Of a stretch of DNA of 64,000 nt, positions 2,859 to 10,620 are shown one piece after another. Source of the DNA: an uncultured Actinomycetes bacterium. Lineage in GTDB: Bacteria > Actinomycetota > Thermoleophilia > UBA2241. The translations under genes and the position numbers were made by a program. Within the stretch, counting starts at the first letter, position 1; each line of letters begins with the position of its first letter. The stretch lies in assembly GCA_963755025.1 (NCBI GenBank), contig CAVWIH010000034.1:128001-192000 (forward strand), read 5' to 3'. The notes below the pieces were generated by a model. The model ran no database searches. It had not been told where the DNA came from and saw only the letters and a list, made by a program, of their open reading frames with translations.

Positions 2859-4319
2859 CTATTCGTGACGCGCGCGACGGATGTCGCTGGCGCTCGCCTG
2901 GCAGATGGCGGCCAGGCCGTCGATCTGGTCGTCGCTCAGGCAGGGCTCTTTGGCGGCGTGCGCGGCCAGCAGGCGCTCGACCGTGTCGCAGGCCACGTCG
3001 TTCTCGGTGCGGCCTTCTTCGAGCCACTTGTCGTACGACAGGCGGTTCGACACGCCCGGCTGCAGGTGTTCGCCCGCGCGCACGCGGCGCGCCGTGTCTT
3101 TCTCGCCGAGAAAGCCGCCGCCCGGCCCGACCCGGGCGATCGACTCGGCGGCCAAGGTGGCGTCGGAGACCTCGACGTCGCCGTGAAGGCGGCGCACCAT
3201 GGCGGCGATCTCGTCGTCGACGACCGACTGCGGCAGGTACATGGTGTTGTGCGAATCGATCAGGCCCCAGCCCGTGACGATGTCGGGGTTGGCGCTGCAC
3301 ACGCCGGCCACCTTGAGGGCCTTCTCGTAGCCGGTCTGCAGGCCGGCGTGCTTGCTGTCGGTCGACAGTCCCGGGCTCAGCGTGGGCACGCCCACGTAGT
3401 GGCCGACCTCGGTGGCCATGGCCGCCATGAGGGCGCTCTCGACGCAGCCCAGCGAGAAGGTCGTGCGCAGCATGTCGAGCACGCCGGAGCCGAAGCAGAA
3501 GATGAGCCGCGCCCCGGGCGCGGCGACCTGCAGGGCGGTGGCGACGCCTAGGAACTCGGCGAGCCCCTGCACGACCGAGCCCGCCAGCGTGACCGGCGAG
3601 GTCGCCCCGGCGATCGTCATGGAGTAGACCTCGATCGGTATGCCCAGGGCGGCCAGCGCGACGTGGACGTCGAGCACCGGCCCCTCGACCTGGAGCGGCG
3701 AGGCGGCCGTGCAGACTGTCGAGAAGCGCGGCCGCTCGCGGAACGCCTCGAGGCTGCCCGAGAGCACTTCGCAGATGCGCACGACGGCGTCGACCTCGTT
3801 GGGGCAGTCGACGAAGGTCACGTGCTGCGAGGTCTCGGTGAGCATGGTGAAGTACTCGATGAGCTCGCGCCGGTCGAGCGCGACGTCGGTGGCGCTGACC
3901 TGGGTCCACATGAGGTCGAGCTGCGGCAGTTCGTCCATGAGCGCGGTGCACTCGCGCAGGTCCTGCAGCGTGCTGGGGCGGCGCGCGCCCGTGCGAAAGT
4001 CGAGCGTCTTGGCGACGCAGCCGCTCGGCGCAAAGCGGAACCGCTGGTCGGCGCCGAGCAGGGCGTCGTCGGCCGGCGTGGCGCCGGCCATGGTGAAGGA
4101 GCGCGGGCACTGGGAGATGGCCCACTCGACGAGCTCGCGGGGCAGGCGGACGATGCCGGTAGCCTCGTCGACCTGGGCGCCGCGGGCGGCCAGCAGGGGC
4201 AGCGTGCGCGAGCCGGCCAAGCGTATGCCGACCGTCGCCAGCAGGTCGATGGCCTGGTCTGCGATGCGGCTCTTCTCGTGCTCTGAGAGCCACGCGGTCC
4301 GTGCCTTCACAAGCCTCAC
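2859..4319 (-). CDS. Non-pyrrolysine MttB-superfamily methyltransferase
   Basis: AGATSPVTLAGS and GLSTDSKHAGLQTGYEK motifs, GPGGGFL C-terminal motif; Ser at the Pyl-equivalent position. Confidence 0.85.
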   Translation of the reverse strand: MRLVKARTAWLSEHEKSRIADQAIDLLATVGIRLAGSRTLPLLAARGAQVDEATGIVRLPRELVEWAISQCPRSFTMAGATPADDALLGADQRFRFAPSGCVAKTLDFRTGARRPSTLQDLRECTALMDELPQLDLMWTQVSATDVALDRRELIEYFTMLTETSQHVTFVDCPNEVDAVVRICEVLSGSLEAFRERPRFSTVCTAASPLQVEGPVLDVHVALAALGIPIEVYSMTIAGATSPVTLAGSVVQGLAEFLGVATALQVAAPGARLIFCFGSGVLDMLRTTFSLGCVESALMAAMATEVGHYVGVPTLSPGLSTDSKHAGLQTGYEKALKVAGVCSANPDIVTGWGLIDSHNTMYLPQSVVDDEIAAMVRRLHGDVEVSDATLAAESIARVGPGGGFLGEKDTARRVRAGEHLQPGVSNRLSYDKWLEEGRTENDVACDTVERLLAAHAAKEPCLSDDQIDGLAAICQASASDIRRARHE

Positions 4320-4563
4320 ACACCTTCCCCTGGGCCGCTGTCCGCGCGCTGGTGCGCGGGCTTGGCGGCGGTCCCCGGCAGCCTGCCGCGAGACCGTTCG
4401 CAGGGCACGATGTCACCAGCCCCGAGCGGTGTCAAGCCGAAGCGTTTCGTTCCAACGGAAAACGGCAGAACTACTTGTCTTTACAACGCACATGCTTGAA
4501 CTGTCGCCGCGAAAGCGCAAAGATTGCGTATTCGCTGTGAGTATCGGCAGGGAGGAGCATCGC

Positions 4564-5100
4564 ATGATCAGAGCGGGGCAGGCCCCCTTCGGCACGGTCG
4601 CCATGGACGAGCTCGACCGCGGCATCGTGCAGCTGCTGCGCCCTAACGCGCGGCGCTCGTACGCCAGCGTCGCGCGCGCCCTCGGCGTCTCCGAGCCCAC
4701 GGTGCGCAACCGCGTCGACCGCCTCATCGCCAAGGGCGCCGTCTTTCAGCGGGCCAGCGTCAACCCCGCGGCCATCGGTCTACCCGTCGACGCCATGGTC
4801 GGCATCCGCGTGAACCGCGGCTACTCAAAGGGGGTTGGGGCGCGCCTCGCCGCCATGGAGAACGTAGCCTACGTGGGCTACACCACCGGCTCGTTCGACA
4901 TCCTGATCGAGGCGCACCTGCCCGACAACGAGGGCCTCTACAAGTTCTTGAACGAAGACCTCGAAGAGATCGAGGGCGTGGCCTACACCGAGACCTGGCA
5001 CATCCTGCGCACCGACAAGACCAACATCGAGTGGGAGGGCGAGATGGTCGGGCACGCTCCCCTCGAGGTCGTCGACGACCTCGAGGGCGCCGACGCTTGA
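4564..5100 (+). CDS. Lrp/AsnC family transcriptional regulator
   Basis: MDELDRGIVQLL...ARRSYASVARALGVSEPTVRNRV HTH, TTGSFDIL ligand-domain motif; GGAGGAG RBS. Confidence 0.9.
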   Translation: MIRAGQAPFGTVAMDELDRGIVQLLRPNARRSYASVARALGVSEPTVRNRVDRLIAKGAVFQRASVNPAAIGLPVDAMVGIRVNRGYSKGVGARLAAMENVAYVGYTTGSFDILIEAHLPDNEGLYKFLNEDLEEIEGVAYTETWHILRTDKTNIEWEGEMVGHAPLEVVDDLEGADA

Positions 5101-5132
5101 CAAGCCCCGGCGGGCAGTGTCTGATGAGCTAC

Positions 5133-5150
5133 TAATTGACCGGTCGATTA
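5133..5150. promoter_or_regulatory. Near-perfect 18-bp palindrome (candidate repressor operator) upstream of mtbB
   Basis: TAATTGACCGGTCGATTA, AT-rich in a GC-rich background; TTGACA at 5097-5102 upstream. Confidence 0.55.
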
Positions 5151-5186
5151 GCACGACCGCCATGGCGTGATCTGGGGAGGGCAAGC

Positions 5187-6596
5187 GTGACGACAGAAGA
5201 CCGGGTGCCGACCCGAATGGCCGACGGCACCTTCGTGCGCCTGACGCGCAGCGAGATCAAGGCCGATCTCGTGGCCGGGTCAGAGGCGGCGGCCAAACGC
5301 GCCAAGGTGGCGCCGCTGACCGACGACGAGATCGACCACCTGCTCGACATCTACGCCTCGCCGGCGCGCTTTACCGGGGTCGACGTGGGCGACGAGATCG
5401 TCCTTTCCTGCGACGGCACCGGCATGAAGACCCACGCCACGCGCATCCAGGACCTGCAGACCTACGAGCAGTGGATGGGCGCCGACCTGCTCGAGCTGTG
5501 CGTGGGCGACTACTCGCTCAAGGTCGTGCGCACCATCCTCGCCTACGAGGCGCAGTACATGCACGACGCCCAGCTCTGCACGGTGGCGCCGCTGCAGTAC
5601 GGCGTCATGCCCAACCTGGGCCTCTATTCCAAGCCCGACGGCCCCTGCGACAACTGGAACGAGCTCCTGCCGCTGGGCCGCATCGACGAAGCGCGGGCGT
5701 CTGAAGAAGAGGCCGTCGAGATGGCCGTGGTCGACATGGTGCGCCTGGCCGACACGCAGTACGAGGCCGGCGCCGACGCCATCGACTGGGACACGACGGG
5801 CGCCTCGGGCGACCCCGAGTTCCTGGCCGCGCTGCGCGCCACCGCCATCATCCGCAAGAAGTACCCCGACTTCGGCGTGCAGCTGGGCATGGCCGGCGAG
5901 TTCGTGCTGGGCATGCACGGCCGGCTCGAGTACGAGGGCGTGCGCCTCGCCGGCCTGTGGCCTAAAGACCAGCTGCTGCTCGCCCAGCAGGCCGGCGCCA
6001 CCATGTTCGGGCCGGTCGTCAACGTGAACACCGGCAAGAGTTGCGCCTGGAACATCGCCCGGGCGATCGCCCTGGTCAAGCCGTGCATGGACGTAGCCAC
6101 CATCCCCGTCCACATGAACGCCGGCATGGGCGTGGGCGCCGTGCCCATGTTCGTGCACCCGCCGGCCGACGCCGTGTGCCGGGCGGCCAAGTCGTGCGTC
6201 GACATCCTGCACCTCGACGGCTTATAGGTTGGTTCCGGCGACCCGCATGGCATGCACAGTGCGCATGCGCAGGCGGCGGGCATGGGCGGAATGCGAGCAG
6301 CCGGAGACCTGGTTGCTCGCCTGCAGATGACCCGCGGTATGCGTCTGGCGCAAGCAAAAGACTATGTGGCCGGCAAGCTCGGCGTGACGCCGTTCGACCT
6401 GTCCGACCCCGTCGTCATGACCGACGTGCGCAACGACTTCGGCTTTGGCCGCATCCACAGCTACGCCATCAGTCAGCCGGCGCAGGCCAACCAGATCGAG
6501 GCCAAGGTGAACATCGCGCGCGTGCTCGACATACCCATCAACTGTGTGGAGCGCTTCAGGGAACGTACGACGCCGGTCGCCGGCGGCGTGCGCTGA
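5187..6596 (+). CDS. mtbB: Dimethylamine:corrinoid methyltransferase, pyrrolysine-containing (in-frame TAG 6225-6227, codon 347 of 469)
   Basis: ORFs 5136-6227 and 6252-6596 share a frame; readthrough gives LDGL-O-VGSGDPHGM...GMGGMRAAGDLVARLQ, matching Methanosarcina MtbB DGI-O-IGVGDPLGM...RAAGDLVARMQ; GTG start with GGGGAGG RBS. Confidence 0.92.
6235..6373 (+). promoter_or_regulatory. Long imperfect stem-loop immediately 3' of the mtbB amber codon (PYLIS-like candidate)
   Basis: Nested helices 6235-39/6369-73, 6244-50/6362-68, 6261-68/6337-44, 6276-83/6327-35, 6293-6302/6311-20; local excess of A/T-ending codons. Confidence 0.6.
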
Positions 6597-6621
6597 CGCG
6601 GCGACCGAGGGAGGGCGACTG

Positions 6622-8097
6622 ATGATCCGCAACCCGCGCGCCGGCGCGCGCAAGAGCGGCGGCTTTCGGCTCGAGGTGTTCACCGACGACGAGCTGCGCG
6701 AGATCCACCTGGCGACGCTCGAGGTGCTGTCGCGCACCGGCGTCTTCGTCGAAGACGACGAGGCGCTCGAGCTGTTCGCCCAGGCGGGCGCCGACATCGA
6801 CCGCGAGCGCCGCGTCGTGCGCCTGCCGGCGCACCTGGTCGAAGACGCCGTCGACGCGGCGCCCTCCACGGTCGTGCTCTGCGGGCGCGACCCGGCGAAC
6901 GACGTGGTCTTAGAAGACGGCCGCGTCGGCTTCACCAACTTCGGCGAGGGCATCCAGGTCGTCGATCCCTACACGGGCGAGCTGCGCGAGTCGCACAAGG
7001 CCGACGTGGCCGACTGCACGCGCCTGATCGACGCCCTGCCCGAGATCGACGTCGTCGAGCGCCCCCTCGGGGCGCACGACGTGCCGCCCGACACGGCGGC
7101 CCTGCACAACGCCGAAGCGATCTTCTCGAACACCACCAAGCACGCCACCATCGGCCCGCTCTCGGGCTTCTGCGCGGTGAAGATGATCGACATGGCGGCC
7201 GCCATCGCCGGCGGCCGAGACCGCTTGCGCAGGCGGCCCATCCTCTCGTTCCTCACCTGCCCGGTGAGCCCCCTCAAGCTCGTCGCCGACGCCTGTCGCA
7301 TCATCATCGAGGGGGCTCGTGCCGGGGTGCCGGTCAACGTGCTCTCCATGGCCATGGCCGGCGGCTCGTCGCCGGTGAACCTGGCCGGCACGCTGGTCAC
7401 CCACAACGCCGAGGTGCTCGCCGGCATCACGCTGGCACAACTCACCGTGCGCGGCGCGCCCGTCATTTACGGCTCGTCGACGACCGCCATGGACCTGCGC
7501 TACGCGAGCGCCTCGGTGGGCAGCCCGGAGTGCGGCATGATCGGCGCCGGGGTGGCCTGCCTGGCGCGCTTCTACTTGCTGCCCAGCTGGGTCGCCGGTG
7601 CGTAGGGCGACTCCAAGGTGGCCGACGCCCAATCCGGTCACGAGAAGACACTCACCAGCCTGCTACCGGCGTTGGCAGGGGCCAACCTGATCTATGGGCT
7701 GGGGATGTTGGAATCGGGCGTCACCATCGACTACGCGCAGCTCGTCATGGACGCCGAGTTCGCGCGCATGGTCAAGTTCTGCGTGCCGGGCATCGCCGTG
7801 AACGACGAGACCCTGTCGGTCGACGTCATCGCCGAGATCGGCCCGTTCAGCGACTTTCTCTCACACGACGACACCTACCGCGGCATGCGCGGCCAGTCGC
7901 GCTCGAAGTTGATCGACCGGCGGGTCCGCGAGGAGTGGGTCGCCGCCGGCTCGACGACGCTCTACGAACGCTCGCGCGCCGAAGCCTGCCGCCTGCTCGA
8001 GAGCCACGTGCCGCAGCCGTTGCCGCCCGAGGTGGCCGCCGAGCTTGCCGCCATCATCGCGGCGGCAGAGCTGGAGCTCGGCGTGGGGCCGGCCTGA
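6622..8097 (+). CDS. mttB: Trimethylamine:corrinoid methyltransferase, pyrrolysine-containing (in-frame TAG 7603-7605, codon 328 of 491)
   Basis: ORFs ending 7605 and 7618-8097 share a frame; [45 protein letters not shown] matches the Pyl site of Methanosarcina MttB; GGAGGG RBS. Confidence 0.93.
7617..7725 (+). promoter_or_regulatory. Long imperfect stem-loop just 3' of the mttB amber codon (PYLIS-like candidate)
   Basis: Nested helices GACGCCC 7624-30/GGGCGTC 7716-22, TCCGG/TTGGA, CCAGCCTG 7655-62/TGGGCTGG 7695-7702, GTTGGC-AGGG-GCCAAC 7671-86. Confidence 0.55.
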
Positions 8098-8177
8098 GAG
8101 AGCCGCGCGCGGTAAGGCAGAGGGCCACCGGGAACAGCGCCACCGACAGGGCGCGCACGACGCAGGCGAGGGTGTCG

Positions 8178-8993
8178 TCAGGCGACCCGATCGAACGAAG
8201 GGTCGCTCGCCGGAAAGCCGAGCGTGGTGCGCACCGTGCCGTCGCCTTCGACGATCAGCGCGCTGTAGCCGCGCAGTCCCGCCACCCGAGCCAGGGCCTT
8301 GCCGCCCGACGCCAGCAGAGCGGTGGCCAGGGCGTCGACGAAGGCCAGGTCGGGGCCTACCACGGTCGCCGCGAGCAGTTCCTGGGCGGCTTCGCCGGAG
8401 TGGGGGTCGAACACGTGCAGGCCGCGCTCGTAGTTGCCCGAGGTGGCCACCGCGCGGTCGTGGCCGCCCAGCGTGACCACGGTGAGCAGACGGTCGGCGG
8501 CCAGGGGGTGGCGTATGCCCACGCGCCACGGCTGGCCCTCTTCGGGCTCGCCGAACACGGCCACGTCGCCGCCGGCGTTGATCATGGCGCCCGCGGCGCC
8601 CGAGGCGCGCACCTCGGCCAAGGCGAGCTCGGCGGCCCAGCCCTTGACCAGGCCCGTGGGGTCGACGCCGCCCGGCAGCGCCCAGGGGTCGAACCAGCCG
8701 CCCGACGCCTCGCGCGCCCGGCGGCAGAGCTCGAGCACCTGGGCGACCTCGGGCGGCGCCTCGTCGAGCGATATCTCGCCGCGCCGCAGGCGGCTCACGG
8801 GGCTGTCTGGCTGCCAGGTGCTGAACACCTGGTCGACGTGGTGCAGCACGGCGACCGCGCGCTGCGCGGCGGCGGCCGTCGCAGAGGTCGCCGACGCCTC
8901 GCCGCCGGTCTCAGTCGCCGCCGCCGTTGTCGCCGCCGCTTCCCGGATCACCAACGACACCACCGTGCCCATTACCGCTTCCGAGAGCTGCAT
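8178..8993 (-). CDS. apbE: FAD:protein FMN transferase (ApbE family)
   Basis: VMGT, FSTWQPDSPVSRL, DPTGLVKGWA, INAGGDV, VATSGNYERG, DALATA motifs. Confidence 0.88.
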   Translation of the reverse strand: MQLSEAVMGTVVSLVIREAAATTAAATETGGEASATSATAAAAQRAVAVLHHVDQVFSTWQPDSPVSRLRRGEISLDEAPPEVAQVLELCRRAREASGGWFDPWALPGGVDPTGLVKGWAAELALAEVRASGAAGAMINAGGDVAVFGEPEEGQPWRVGIRHPLAADRLLTVVTLGGHDRAVATSGNYERGLHVFDPHSGEAAQELLAATVVGPDLAFVDALATALLASGGKALARVAGLRGYSALIVEGDGTVRTTLGFPASDPSFDRVA

Positions 8994-9160
8994 TGGTCCC
9001 TCCGGTCGTGATCTTGCCGTGCCTGGCGCTCACGCGCACCTGGATGTCGCCGAGGCCGCGCGAGATCGACTGGTCGATGCCCAACGCGCTCGTCCCGACG
9101 CCCACGCCGCCGGCACTACCGCCGCGCGCTTCACGGTCGCGGTGAGGTCGCCGTGGTCAT
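8994..9160 (-). pseudogene. Possible remnant of an FMN-binding (flavinylated) domain gene
   Basis: AAGGAGG RBS + ATG 9160 then an early stop; another frame reads GLGDIQVRVSARHGKIT, like the FMN_bind strand motif; lies between the reductase and apbE. Confidence 0.35.
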
Positions 9161-9183
9161 GCGTGACCCTCCTTGCGCGCGCA

Positions 9184-10620
9184 CTAGAACTCGAAGTCTT
9201 CGTGATGGATGCGCTCGCTGCGCACCCCGAGCCGGCGGGCCTGGGCGATGAGCTGCTTCATGAAGCCGCTGGGGCCGCAGACGTACAGGTCGCGGGCGGC
9301 GATGTCGGGCACGAGGCGCTGCAGGCGGCCGGCGTCGAGAGGCTGCTCGGCGCGCGGGCCCACGATCTCGTGCAGGCGCCCGCCGCGCACCCCGACCAGC
9401 TGCGTGATCTCGTCGCGCAGCACGAGGTCGTGGGCCGAAGAGCCGCGCAGCAGCACGACCACGTCGACGTGCCGCGGCAGGTCTTCGAGCATGGCCCGCA
9501 CCGGCGTCGCGCCGACACCGGCGGCCACCAGCAGCACCCGGTCGGTGTCGCGGGCGTAGCGCGTGAAGGCGCCGTAGGGCCCCTCGATCGCCACGGCCGT
9601 GCCCGGCTTGAGCCGGGCCAGCGCCGAGCTGTGCTCGCCGGCCGCTTTGACCGTGATGCGCATCTCGTTGCCGCCGGGCAGCGCCGAGACCGAGTAGGGG
9701 TGCGCCCGCCACCACAGGCCGCGGGTGAGAAAGCGGAAGTTCATGAACTGCCCGCCGACGATCGGCAGCCGGTCGAGATGATGGCCGCGCACCACCAGAC
9801 TGATCACGCCGGGCGACTCCTGCTCGACGCGCGCCACCCTGAGGCGGTGGCTCAGGCTGCGCACGGTCGGCAGGCCGAAGCGGTAGCAGAGCACGACGCC
9901 GGCGGTCAGCAGCCAGAGGCCGATCCAGTAGGCGCGCGCCAGCGGGTGACCGATGAACGGCGTGCCGGTGTCGATCTGGTGGCTGAAGGCGATGGCCGCG
10001 CCGAGGTACATGTACAGGTGGACCGTCCACCAGGTCTCGTAGCGCAGGTGTTTGCGCACGTTGCGGTACGAGGTCACGCCGGCCACGACGATCAGGCCCA
10101 GGCCGACGACCGCGCCGAGCATGCCGGGGAAGTGCGTGATCAGCGTGGCGAGCTCGTGCAGCAGGCCCGTCTTGACGCCTTGCGCGTAGCCCAGGGTGAT
10201 GAACAGGGCGTGGGCGACCAGCAAGATGATGACCCAGGGGCCGAGACGACGGTGCCAGCGCACGAGGGCGTCTTGACCGAGGGCCCGTTCGATCGCCGGT
10301 ATGCGCCCGACGAGCAGCACGGTGACCAGCAACAGGTAGGTGCCCAGCATGCCGGTCAGGCGGCCGATGGCCGTGGCCAGGCCGCCGGGAGCCACCAGGT
10401 CGTGCGGCGAGAGGGTGGGCAGCACGAGCCCCATGGTGACGATCGCACCGAGCAGGGTGAGGGTGCGGAAGATCCGCGTCCACATCATGTGCGGCCTCGG
10501 CAGCGCGCGGGCTCGCGTGCCGCTGCGCTCGCCGACGCGCCGCCTGCCGAGCTCGTCGGCGAGTGCGCCGGTGTCCCACTCATCACTCAAGGTCCTGTCG
10601 ACCTCCTCCGCGCGGGCCAC
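9184..10620 (-). CDS. Ferric reductase-like transmembrane / FAD-NAD(P)H-binding oxidoreductase
   Basis: TM His motifs (RWHRRLG, VAHAL, WWTVHLYMY, FSHQ), HPYSVS, IEGPYG, AAGVGATP, YVCGP, ends HHEDFEF-TAG. Confidence 0.88.
   Translation of the reverse strand: MARAEEVDRTLSDEWDTGALADELGRRRVGERSGTRARALPRPHMMWTRIFRTLTLLGAIVTMGLVLPTLSPHDLVAPGGLATAIGRLTGMLGTYLLLVTVLLVGRIPAIERALGQDALVRWHRRLGPWVIILLVAHALFITLGYAQGVKTGLLHELATLITHFPGMLGAVVGLGLIVVAGVTSYRNVRKHLRYETWWTVHLYMYLGAAIAFSHQIDTGTPFIGHPLARAYWIGLWLLTAGVVLCYRFGLPTVRSLSHRLRVARVEQESPGVISLVVRGHHLDRLPIVGGQFMNFRFLTRGLWWRAHPYSVSALPGGNEMRITVKAAGEHSSALARLKPGTAVAIEGPYGAFTRYARDTDRVLLVAAGVGATPVRAMLEDLPRHVDVVVLLRGSSAHDLVLRDEITQLVGVRGGRLHEIVGPRAEQPLDAGRLQRLVPDIAARDLYVCGPSGFMKQLIAQARRLGVRSERIHHEDFEF

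Follow-up and report, generated by a model that had tools for sequence, protein, structure and literature searches.

In the 64,000-nucleotide (nt) stretch of DNA analyzed here, which we call the window and to whose positions all plain coordinates refer, the dimethylamine methyltransferase gene mtbB carries one in-frame TAG, read as pyrrolysine (Pyl), and the mRNA downstream of this codon folds into a hairpin. We found that the inner part of the hairpin, at 6267 to 6344, is very probably an RNA structure under selection: its third-position pairs covary among relatives, and codons ending in A or T (A/T3 codons) peak at codons 16 to 30 after the UAG. These observations bear out the proposal of a first-pass annotation that an mRNA structure marked by A/T-ending codons is under selection after the mtbB UAG. 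We give about an even chance to the fuller reading, suggested by comparison of sequences, that the hairpin (core 6267 to 6344, apex 6293 to 6320) is kept by mRNA-level selection as a cis signal for the Pyl codon. The hairpin is of the kind cataloged in Rfam as PYLIS_2 (RF02509, "Pyrrolysine insertion sequence mtbB"), with a conserved form that is bacterial and comprises a 12-bp apical stem, an invariant loop A, and a lower stem lying beyond the 100-nt Rfam model. The features on which the argument turns are as follows.

5187 to 6596, plus strand: mtbB (dimethylamine methyltransferase), with one in-frame TAG; Pfam PF09505 Dimeth_Pyl, E = 3e-164, in the TAG-readthrough translation.
6267 to 6344, plus strand: conserved core hairpin, made up of a lower stem (6267-6283/6327-6344), middle pairs (6286-6289/6321-6324), and an apical stem (6293-6304/6309-6320).
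6293 to 6320, plus strand: apical stem-loop of 12 bp with the 4-nt loop AGAC at 6305-6308, equivalent to the 3' hairpin of the Rfam PYLIS_2 model (positions 73-92).

PYLIS_2 matches 6225 to 6324 with 63.7 bits (E = 5e-13; gathering score, 36); in the cmscan alignment, model positions 1 to 100 span this interval, and positions 1 to 3 are the TAG itself at 6225-6227. All seven mtbB paralogs of the genome score between 57.5 and 73.7 bits against the same model. At the gathering threshold, the window has no match to the mtmB pyrrolysine insertion sequence (PYLIS) family (RF01982) or to the selenocysteine insertion sequence (SECIS) families, only to PYLIS_2 and to PYLIS_3, the mttB family (7603 to 7702, 72.6 bits), and these two are also the only Rfam matches in 5000 to 9200 at E <= 1.

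Conservation and covariation of the core

A scan of one genome per species yielded 76 related loci, the nearest public relatives being metagenome-assembled genomes labeled Thermoleophilia or Actinomycetota. Seventy-two of the loci were usable; L052 and L064 were dropped with two motif hits each and L087 and L089 with none. When the base-pair probability matrices of the 72 sequences were averaged, the pairs exceeding 0.5 were those of the core only, and the pairing probability of the apical loop was 0.00. The inner ~78 nt (6267 to 6344) is the only conserved part of the hairpin, with the core starting 39 nt and the apical stem 65 nt past the UAG. In columns counted from the T of the TAG, the apical stem occupies columns 69 to 96 and the lower stem columns 43 to 59 with 103 to 120. 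The RNAalifold consensus retains mainly the apical stem; the long-range pairs that it offers between UAG-proximal bases and columns 99 to 108 were rejected, as they lack covariation and are incompatible with the lower stem, which is supported.

Among 72 distinct sequences, the first third-position pair of the apical stem is CG in 59, GC in 9, and UG in 4 and is never unpaired; the second is AU in 20, CG in 30, GC in 4, UG in 5, and UA in 1, with 12 unpaired; and the third is GC in 42, AU in 14, CG in 3, and GU in 2, with 11 unpaired. A lower-stem pair (columns 55-108) likewise occurs as GC in 40, AU in 23, and GU in 6. When the fold of the window was imposed on alignment A1 (72 sequences), 73.7% of the cells were paired, compared to 32 to 38% with the partners slid, and 153 cells were changed on both sides, compared to 27 to 46; none of 500 shuffles matched the observed covariation, although such fractions are not probabilities and a structure taken from one of the rows is favored in these counts. 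To take phylogeny into account, a tree of 76 rows was computed with FastTree from 930 nt of flanking sequence, and independent contrasts were summed across the 32 core pairs. They gave 15.5 changes in the same direction versus 3.5 in the other, or 11.5 versus 0.5 with purine/pyrimidine coding; the corresponding values in slid registers were 3.7/3.3, 3.4/0.9, 0.1/0.8, 5.7/1.4, 1.9/1.7, and 6.7/7.0. In locus L085, a single-base insertion just past the hairpin (A1 column 129) shifts the mtbB frame and may be an assembly error or mark a broken copy.

Two further features point to the sense RNA and to the loop. Two pairs, at columns 76-89 and 79-86, are G-U in all 72 sequences; therefore, the fold exists on the sense RNA only, as neither DNA nor the antisense strand could adopt it. 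The loop codon, whose last letter is the loop A at 6305, is GGA in 71 of 71 loci, even though GGA makes up 1.7% of upstream Gly codons, and it is the only one of 18 invariant-residue codon sites that is fixed to a single codon.

Within the genome itself, all seven mtbB paralogs, which share 49 to 62% amino acid (aa) identity and have one TAG each, form the same apical stem-loop, with third-position bases that differ among the copies. Their A/T3 counts after/before the TAG are 17/2, 11/3, 8/5, 15/3, 3/3, 13/3, and 9/3. One mtbB copy, at C11:17973-19376 (loci L007-L010 and L017) is split over four frames, with TGA plus TAG; it looks like a pseudogene, and its apical stem is still present.

The A/T3 codons are concentrated in the same place. 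Over the 72 Thermoleophilia loci, 46 codons contain on average 9.2 of them after the TAG versus 2.3 before, with more after it in 69 of 72. Their frequency is 14.7% at codons 1 to 15, 28.5% at codons 16 to 30, 16.8% at codons 31 to 46, and 5% from codon 47 on and upstream (background, 5 to 7%). Seventy percent of the excess lies in the core, where 34.7% of unpaired and 19.1% of paired third positions end in A or T, as expected of structured RNA in a G+C-rich message. We take the A/T-ending codons to be the footprint of the fold, supplying A-U and G-U pairs and also keeping loops and bulges unpaired in a message of 70% G+C.

Folding energy and codon usage in the window

Around the mtbB TAG, 2 of the preceding 46 codons and 17 of the following 46 end in A or T, and our recount reproduced the earlier count exactly. 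Seventeen is the highest A/T3 count of all 46-codon windows in mtbB, in which A/T3 codons make up 10.5% gene-wide. RNAfold folds 6228 to 6376 into a single long nested hairpin with a minimum free energy of -78.1 kcal/mol, as had been described, and gives every helix that had been listed. This energy compares to -65.07 ± 3.72 for dinucleotide shuffles (native z = -3.50; 0 of 200 equally stable). How it compares to synonymous recoding of 6228 to 6377, a comparison that the first-pass annotation had suggested, depends on the control. The native fold stands out when synonymous codons are permuted within the region (-66.96 ± 4.50; z = -2.48; 23 of 1,500 as stable) and when synonymous codons are chosen uniformly (z = -4.35; 0 of 1,500), but not when the gene's own G/C-rich codon usage is resampled (-74.05 ± 4.89; z = -0.83; 316 of 1,500). 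It follows from the last control that the rare codons add no extra stability; they specify this particular fold.

In a local 120-nt scan of 5187 to 8900, z fell below -2.5 in 4 of 124 windows, starting at 5217, 6237, 7197, and 8667; the values for those elsewhere in the mtbB-mttB region were -2.93 (5217), -3.75 (7197), and -3.12 (8667). Free energy alone would not single out the region, and the case beyond chance rests on the comparative data.

The stem could be without function, a by-product of the quasi-palindromic peptide RAAGDLVAR in G+C-rich DNA, with the A/T-ending codons left by drift or by a donor of lower GC content. Indeed, the first and second codon positions, given this peptide and CGN Arg codons, fix 8 of the 12 apical pairs, and therefore the protein sequence by itself accounts for part of the stem; with normal codon usage the region would be about as stable, and similar z values occur in 4 of the 124 nearby windows. 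What the peptide leaves free tells otherwise, however. The third-position pairs are complementary in 72, 60, and 61 of 72 sequences with several pair types, no shuffle (0 of 500) or slid register reaches the observed covariation, GGA is fixed though it is a 1.7% codon and TTG though it is a 1.3% codon, and synonymous sites elsewhere in these genes vary freely. Absence of function is already disfavored and is the least probable of the explanations that we weighed.

Restriction of the hairpin to bacterial mtbB

To cover more remote genes, a metagenome scan with an alignment of distant MtbB proteins was used, which returned 80 loci; 73 were usable (3 truncated loci, 2 with two motif hits, and 2 with none were dropped), 67 of the 73 are distinct, and all have the TAG. 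Pooled, the 67 distinct loci show third-position pairing near random (31, 23, and 28 of 67) and no rise in A/T3 (16.7 before versus 16.3 after the TAG). The pool is heterogeneous, as seen from the mean pairing of each group after division by peptide type; the Thermoleophilia loci are listed for comparison.

Thermoleophilia (n = 67): apical pairs, 10.7 of 12; apical probability, 0.88; lower stem, 0.73 (16.6 of 18 pairs).
GDLVAW-motif clade (n = 14): apical pairs, 9.7 of 12; mean apical probability, 0.77; lower stem, 0.04.
Group matching the Rfam consensus peptide, apparently Methanosarcina-like (n = 15): apical pairs, 7.5 of 12; apical probability, 0.10; lower stem, 0.00.
Remaining distant loci, L158 counted here (n = 38): apical pairs, 6.5 of 12; apical probability, 0.06; lower stem, 0.00.

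We refer to the GDLVAW clade as Desulfosarcina-like, after a protein named Desulfosarcina sp. in the 90% cluster of its member L168; the remaining group includes the P0130 cluster, named Candidatus Methanomethylophilaceae archaeon. The stem persists in the GDLVAW clade despite replacement of Arg by Trp on the 3' arm, and one pair in this clade is CG in 8, UA in 2, AU in 1, and GC in 1. In a 46-nt alignment of the bacterial sequences (set A4; 89 rows, 64 distinct), 87.5% of the cells are paired, covariation is 0.239 versus 0.101 when shuffled (0 of 500) and 0.051 to 0.083 when slid, and double-change cells number 63 versus 1 to 24 when slid. In set A5 (52 rows, 51 distinct, archaeal-type or unassigned), pairing is 56.0% versus 55.0% in shuffles (62 of 500) and covariation 0.039 versus 0.038 (209 of 500). 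The apical stem is conserved in two bacterial clades and absent from 51 archaeal-type or unassigned mtbB sequences. One metagenome MtbB homologue, P0127 (full-length, 463 aa), has Trp at the Pyl position and keeps the motif RAGGDLVAR.

A companion hairpin in mttB and a rare codon before the UAG

The gene directly following mtbB belongs to the mttB family and has its own in-frame TAG at 7603-7605, the two forming an apparent mtbB-mttB operon. Two more features are pertinent.

7603 to 7686, plus strand: mttB companion, consisting of the Pyl TAG at 7603-7605 and a 6-bp hairpin (7671-7676/7681-7686) with the loop AGGG; Rfam PYLIS_3 match, synonymous identity in relatives.
6222 to 6227, plus strand: rare Leu codon TTA followed by the Pyl codon TAG (6225-6227); codon counts in relatives and paralogs.

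The MttB family is represented in the genome by 5 genes with TAG (Pyl-mttB) and 16 without; mtmB is absent from the genome. The A/T3 counts after/before the aligned Pyl column are 7/5, 11/4, 9/2, 7/2, and 8/3 in the Pyl-mttB copies, versus 3, 4, 1, 2, 1, 2, 0, 6, 2, 1, 1, 2, 1, 2, 2, and 3 (mean near 2) after the same column in the 16 Pyl-free paralogs. All Pyl-mttB copies contain a 6-bp hairpin with a 4-nt loop, made with the rare codons TTG and GCA; among copies in which the peptide motif could be located, all 4 with Pyl and none of the 7 without it have the hairpin. Its 5' arm begins at column 69 from the T of the TAG, the same offset as that of the mtbB apical stem. In 32 of 32 distinct relatives, the synonymous sites of codons 22 to 24 and 26 to 28 after the mttB TAG are identical, while neighboring codons vary. 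A/T3 in the mttB relatives averages 2.1 before versus 6.4 after the TAG and is higher after it in 34 of 36 loci.

On the other side of the UAG, the codon preceding it is TTG in 68 and TTA in 2 of the 72 Thermoleophilia mtbB loci, compared to 1.3% TTG and 0% TTA among upstream Leu codons (n = 2,053). Five of the seven mtbB paralogs of the genome have TTA at this position, and 14 of 15 loci of the Desulfosarcina-like clade have TTG, versus a background of 13.5%. The rare UUR codon is a second synonymous constraint flanking the UAG. At the Pyl TAGs, the hairpin and the flanking codon are very probably held by synonymous-site selection, and they are absent from Pyl-free paralogs and archaeal-type genes.

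A more ambitious reading is that the nonhomologous mtbB and mttB genes have a composite signal in common in bacteria that use TAG as both stop and Pyl: a P-site codon that is a rare UUR, combined with a small hairpin that has its 5' arm beginning 66 nt after the UAG and a 4-nt loop starting with AG, acting at a distance via an unknown factor or ribosome spacing, with archaea doing without it. We regard this extension as rather unlikely; if true, it would contradict the prevailing view, in which no cis signal is required to insert Pyl.

Both families also bear on the possibility that the element paces translation for the folding of the C-terminal domain or for cofactor or partner binding, unrelated to the UAG. 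Rare codons do cluster in the 46 codons after the active-site residue, and the fold lies wholly within the coding sequence. Yet archaeal-type MtbB has nearly the same peptide without the stem, non-Pyl MttB paralogs lack the signature, and pacing by rare codons would not yield Watson-Crick covariation, which makes this explanation very unlikely.

The lineage-specific outer part of the hairpin

The first-pass annotation had placed the whole ~140-nt hairpin under selection, starting ~7 nt after the UAG. Neither statement survives the comparison: only the core at 6267 to 6344 is conserved, its start is 39 nt after the UAG, and the outer 21 pairs decay to background.

6235 to 6264, plus strand: 5' arm of the outer extension (21 pairs with 6347-6374); minimum free energy fold of the window, lineage specific.
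6347 to 6374, plus strand: 3' arm of the outer extension; minimum free energy fold of the window, lineage specific.

In the window, these pairs bring the foot of the hairpin to 8 nt from the UAG. The extension is confined to the window (21 of 21 pairs kept) and its two nearest relatives (19 in L018 and 17 in L019); the next relatives keep 9 to 12 pairs, the mean of the rest is 10.2, and no compensatory changes occur in the outer 21 pairs across the relatives. The surplus of rare codons in the window (17 versus a family mean of 9.2) lies largely within the outer extension, which is either a young addition or due to chance. In about one-third of the Thermoleophilia loci, one subclade, a small helix similar to the 5' hairpin of the Rfam model is predicted right after the UAG (columns 4-9/37-42; mean probability, 0.36 over 72); in the window, the corresponding bases pair in the outer extension.

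The host gene and the two meanings of TAG

The product of mtbB matches PF09505 Dimeth_Pyl over residues 25 to 476 (547 bits, E = 3e-164). Its open reading frame (ORF) opens at 5136 on the plus strand, with the TAG at 6225-6227 as the sole in-frame TAG, and the gene likely starts with GTG at 5187, judging from close homologues, which are annotated as proteins of 346 aa terminating at the TAG. The TAG stands at the same active-site motif in 72 of 72 usable Thermoleophilia relatives and in 73 of 73 usable distant loci. The source genome, that of a Thermoleophilia-type soil bacterium (3.37 Mb, 70.7% G+C), encodes a tRNA-Pyl with anticodon CTA (aragorn) and, both on contig C10, PylS (277.8 bits) and PylD; a tRNA for selenocysteine is also present in the genome, and the window itself has no tRNA genes. 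Among 1,694 long ORFs rich in G or C at third codon positions, TAG terminates 579 (34%). Together with the Pyl machinery and genes, this means that TAG has two meanings in this organism, namely, stop for about one-third of the genes and Pyl in about a dozen.

RNA-library runs X1 to X4 gave assembled contigs of relatives 92 to 99% alike, with X1 depth in 28 of 30 bins; one 229-nt contig spans 6206 to 6434, contigs of this sort giving no ends, strand, or level. In the literature search, one paper contains both "pyrrolysine" and "Thermoleophilia," only incidentally.

Upstream of mtbB, a 486-aa ORF at 3640 to 5100 (plus strand) has AsnC/Lrp domains only in its last ~165 residues, and its front overlaps a minus-strand, Pyl-free MttB-family gene at ~2916 to 4373. 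The true AsnC/Lrp-type regulator gene is probably short, at ~4600 to 5100, directly upstream of mtbB. The position of this gene is of interest for another alternative, in which the hairpin would be bound by a regulator acting in trans (a protein or a small RNA) that sets methylamine-gene expression by substrate or Pyl supply, independently of UAG decoding. The invariant loop base, the conserved stem length, and the similar small hairpins with 4-nt loops starting with AG in mtbB and mttB would all fit such a site. Against this, regulator sites are usually placed in leaders and not 1 kb into the coding sequence, the association with copies that have a UAG would have to be coincidental, and no candidate factor was identified, no factor search having been made. 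We consider a regulator site quite unlikely.

Possible role in decoding the UAG

The comparative evidence makes the long-standing question of how the cell tells a Pyl UAG from a stop UAG directly testable. On the cis-signal reading, the hairpin and the rare UUR codon before the UAG would together form a signal tied to the Pyl codon, one that would raise the share of ribosomes inserting Pyl rather than terminating in the competition between Pyl-tRNA and release factor. As the UAG is 39 nt away from the core and 65 nt away from the apex, a plain roadblock to the ribosome that decodes it is not favored. Either recognition of the hairpin or a spacing effect is suggested instead by the invariant base in the loop and by the offset that mtbB and mttB have in common, and action from 39 nt could accordingly be conceived as factor binding via the invariant loop or as ribosome spacing. 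Arithmetic on ribosome queues, by which stems at +39 and +65 nt would equal about one and two ribosome lengths, was set aside as numerology and is not used as evidence.

Several points weigh against a cis signal for Pyl. Known recoding stimulators lie 5 to 9 nt from the recoded codon, not 39 nt (core) or 65 nt (apex) as in mtbB. Archaeal-type mtbB genes insert Pyl without the apical stem, and the bacterial group with which they are compared was delimited after the data had been seen, by peptide motif and with L158 added because it folds. The comparison between Pyl and non-Pyl MttB sets one clade against the rest and is a single evolutionary contrast. Each core pair has only 2 to 6 independent events, with no single pair significant, and the contributions of the peptide (8 of 12 apical pairs) and of the gene's own codon usage (z = -0.83) were given above. 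Finally, the mtmB PYLIS has been reported as not essential, in the part of the review that we cite (PMC2933860).

The main rival to the cis-signal reading is mRNA protection. Ribosomes that wait or terminate at the UAG would leave bare RNA downstream, and a stable fold poor in C at that place would impede the loading of Rho or attack by RNases, which would keep mttB and the genes beyond it expressed. Protection would account for the confinement of the signature to UAG-bearing paralogs, for the location of the element tens of nt downstream, out of reach of a ribosome at the UAG, and for its presence in an apparent operon of mtbB followed by mttB. The composition of the core is also in keeping with it: the C/G ratio is 0.60 at codons 16 to 30 versus about 1.0 elsewhere, and third-position C drops from 54% to 37%. 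The low ratio, however, stems largely from the Gly-rich peptide, and general protection would need neither an invariant loop base nor an offset common to two families nor a fixed codon before the UAG. We therefore hold protection to be unlikely, while ranking it ahead of a regulator site, translation pacing, and absence of function.

The comparison thus offers defined targets for mutation, namely, three covarying pairs (6296-6317, 6299-6314, and 6302-6311), the loop base at 6305, and the codon at 6222-6224. Should these affect how much of the enzyme is full length rather than truncated, Pyl decoding in bacteria would involve a cis signal; otherwise, mtbB would be a new example of an mRNA fold that is maintained within a coding region for some other purpose.

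Relation to known elements

A structure for this region has been predicted before. Theil Have et al. (2013, BMC Bioinformatics 14:118; PMC3639795) describe, in the part of the paper available, a "relatively canonical" consensus predicted for the 100 nt after the mtbB UAG, caution that it may not be correct, and cite RF01982 as the accession of the mtmB PYLIS. The PYLIS_2 family probably derives from this consensus, a link between paper and Rfam entry that we infer. The accessible text of the review by Rother and Krzycki (2010; PMC2933860) finds nothing PYLIS-like in mtbB and describes the mtmB PYLIS as not essential and of limited covariance; according to the same text, replacing the mtmB PYLIS lowered the amount of full-length product, and no dedicated Pyl factor is known. 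Zhang and Gladyshev (2007; PMC1976440), likewise as far as the available part goes, report no common structure among bacterial methyltransferase genes, and reviews and a 2024 preprint state that no mechanism telling a Pyl UAG from a stop UAG has been validated. The open literature covered, in the parts available, reports no experiment on any mtbB element, and the literature search, whose reach excluded most subscription journals, found no report of covariation support for a bacterial mtbB hairpin. The first-pass annotation had called a bacterial example notable. This was overstated to the extent that Rfam RF02509 already covers mtbB; what was not found in print is the support from covariation, the presence of a lower stem, and the limitation to bacteria.

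Compared to PYLIS_2, the element of the window likewise begins at the in-frame UAG of mtbB, and the 3' hairpin of the model (73-92) is its apical stem at 6293-6320, which is formed. It differs in that the model ends 100 nt after the UAG and thus lacks the lower stem 6267-6283/6327-6344, and in that the 5' hairpin of the model (7-38) is not formed in the window, where the cmscan alignment has eight nonstandard pairs. The family is moreover a computational prediction, whereas the stem of the window is supported by covariation in bacteria. The mtmB PYLIS of Methanosarcina is also a stem-loop in the coding sequence 3' of a Pyl UAG, proposed to favor UAG translation, but it belongs to another gene family and is described, in the portions of the sources available, as immediately downstream of the UAG.

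Bacterial SECIS elements resemble the mtbB element in being coding-region hairpins 3' of a recoded stop, with conserved loop bases and a codon that is also used as stop. A SECIS is placed no more than about 11 nt from the UGA and is recognized by a factor of its own, SelB, whereas the conserved core in the window is 39 nt from the UAG and only the window-specific outer helix starts 8 nt after it. Viral stop-codon readthrough structures, such as the pseudoknot of murine leukemia virus (MuLV) and the distal elements of plant viruses, include some that act from a distance. In these too, structured RNA 3' of a leaky stop shifts the balance between termination and decoding; they differ in operating in eukaryotic translation with near-cognate tRNAs, while in mtbB the UAG is read by a cognate suppressor tRNA and the action of the hairpin is putative.

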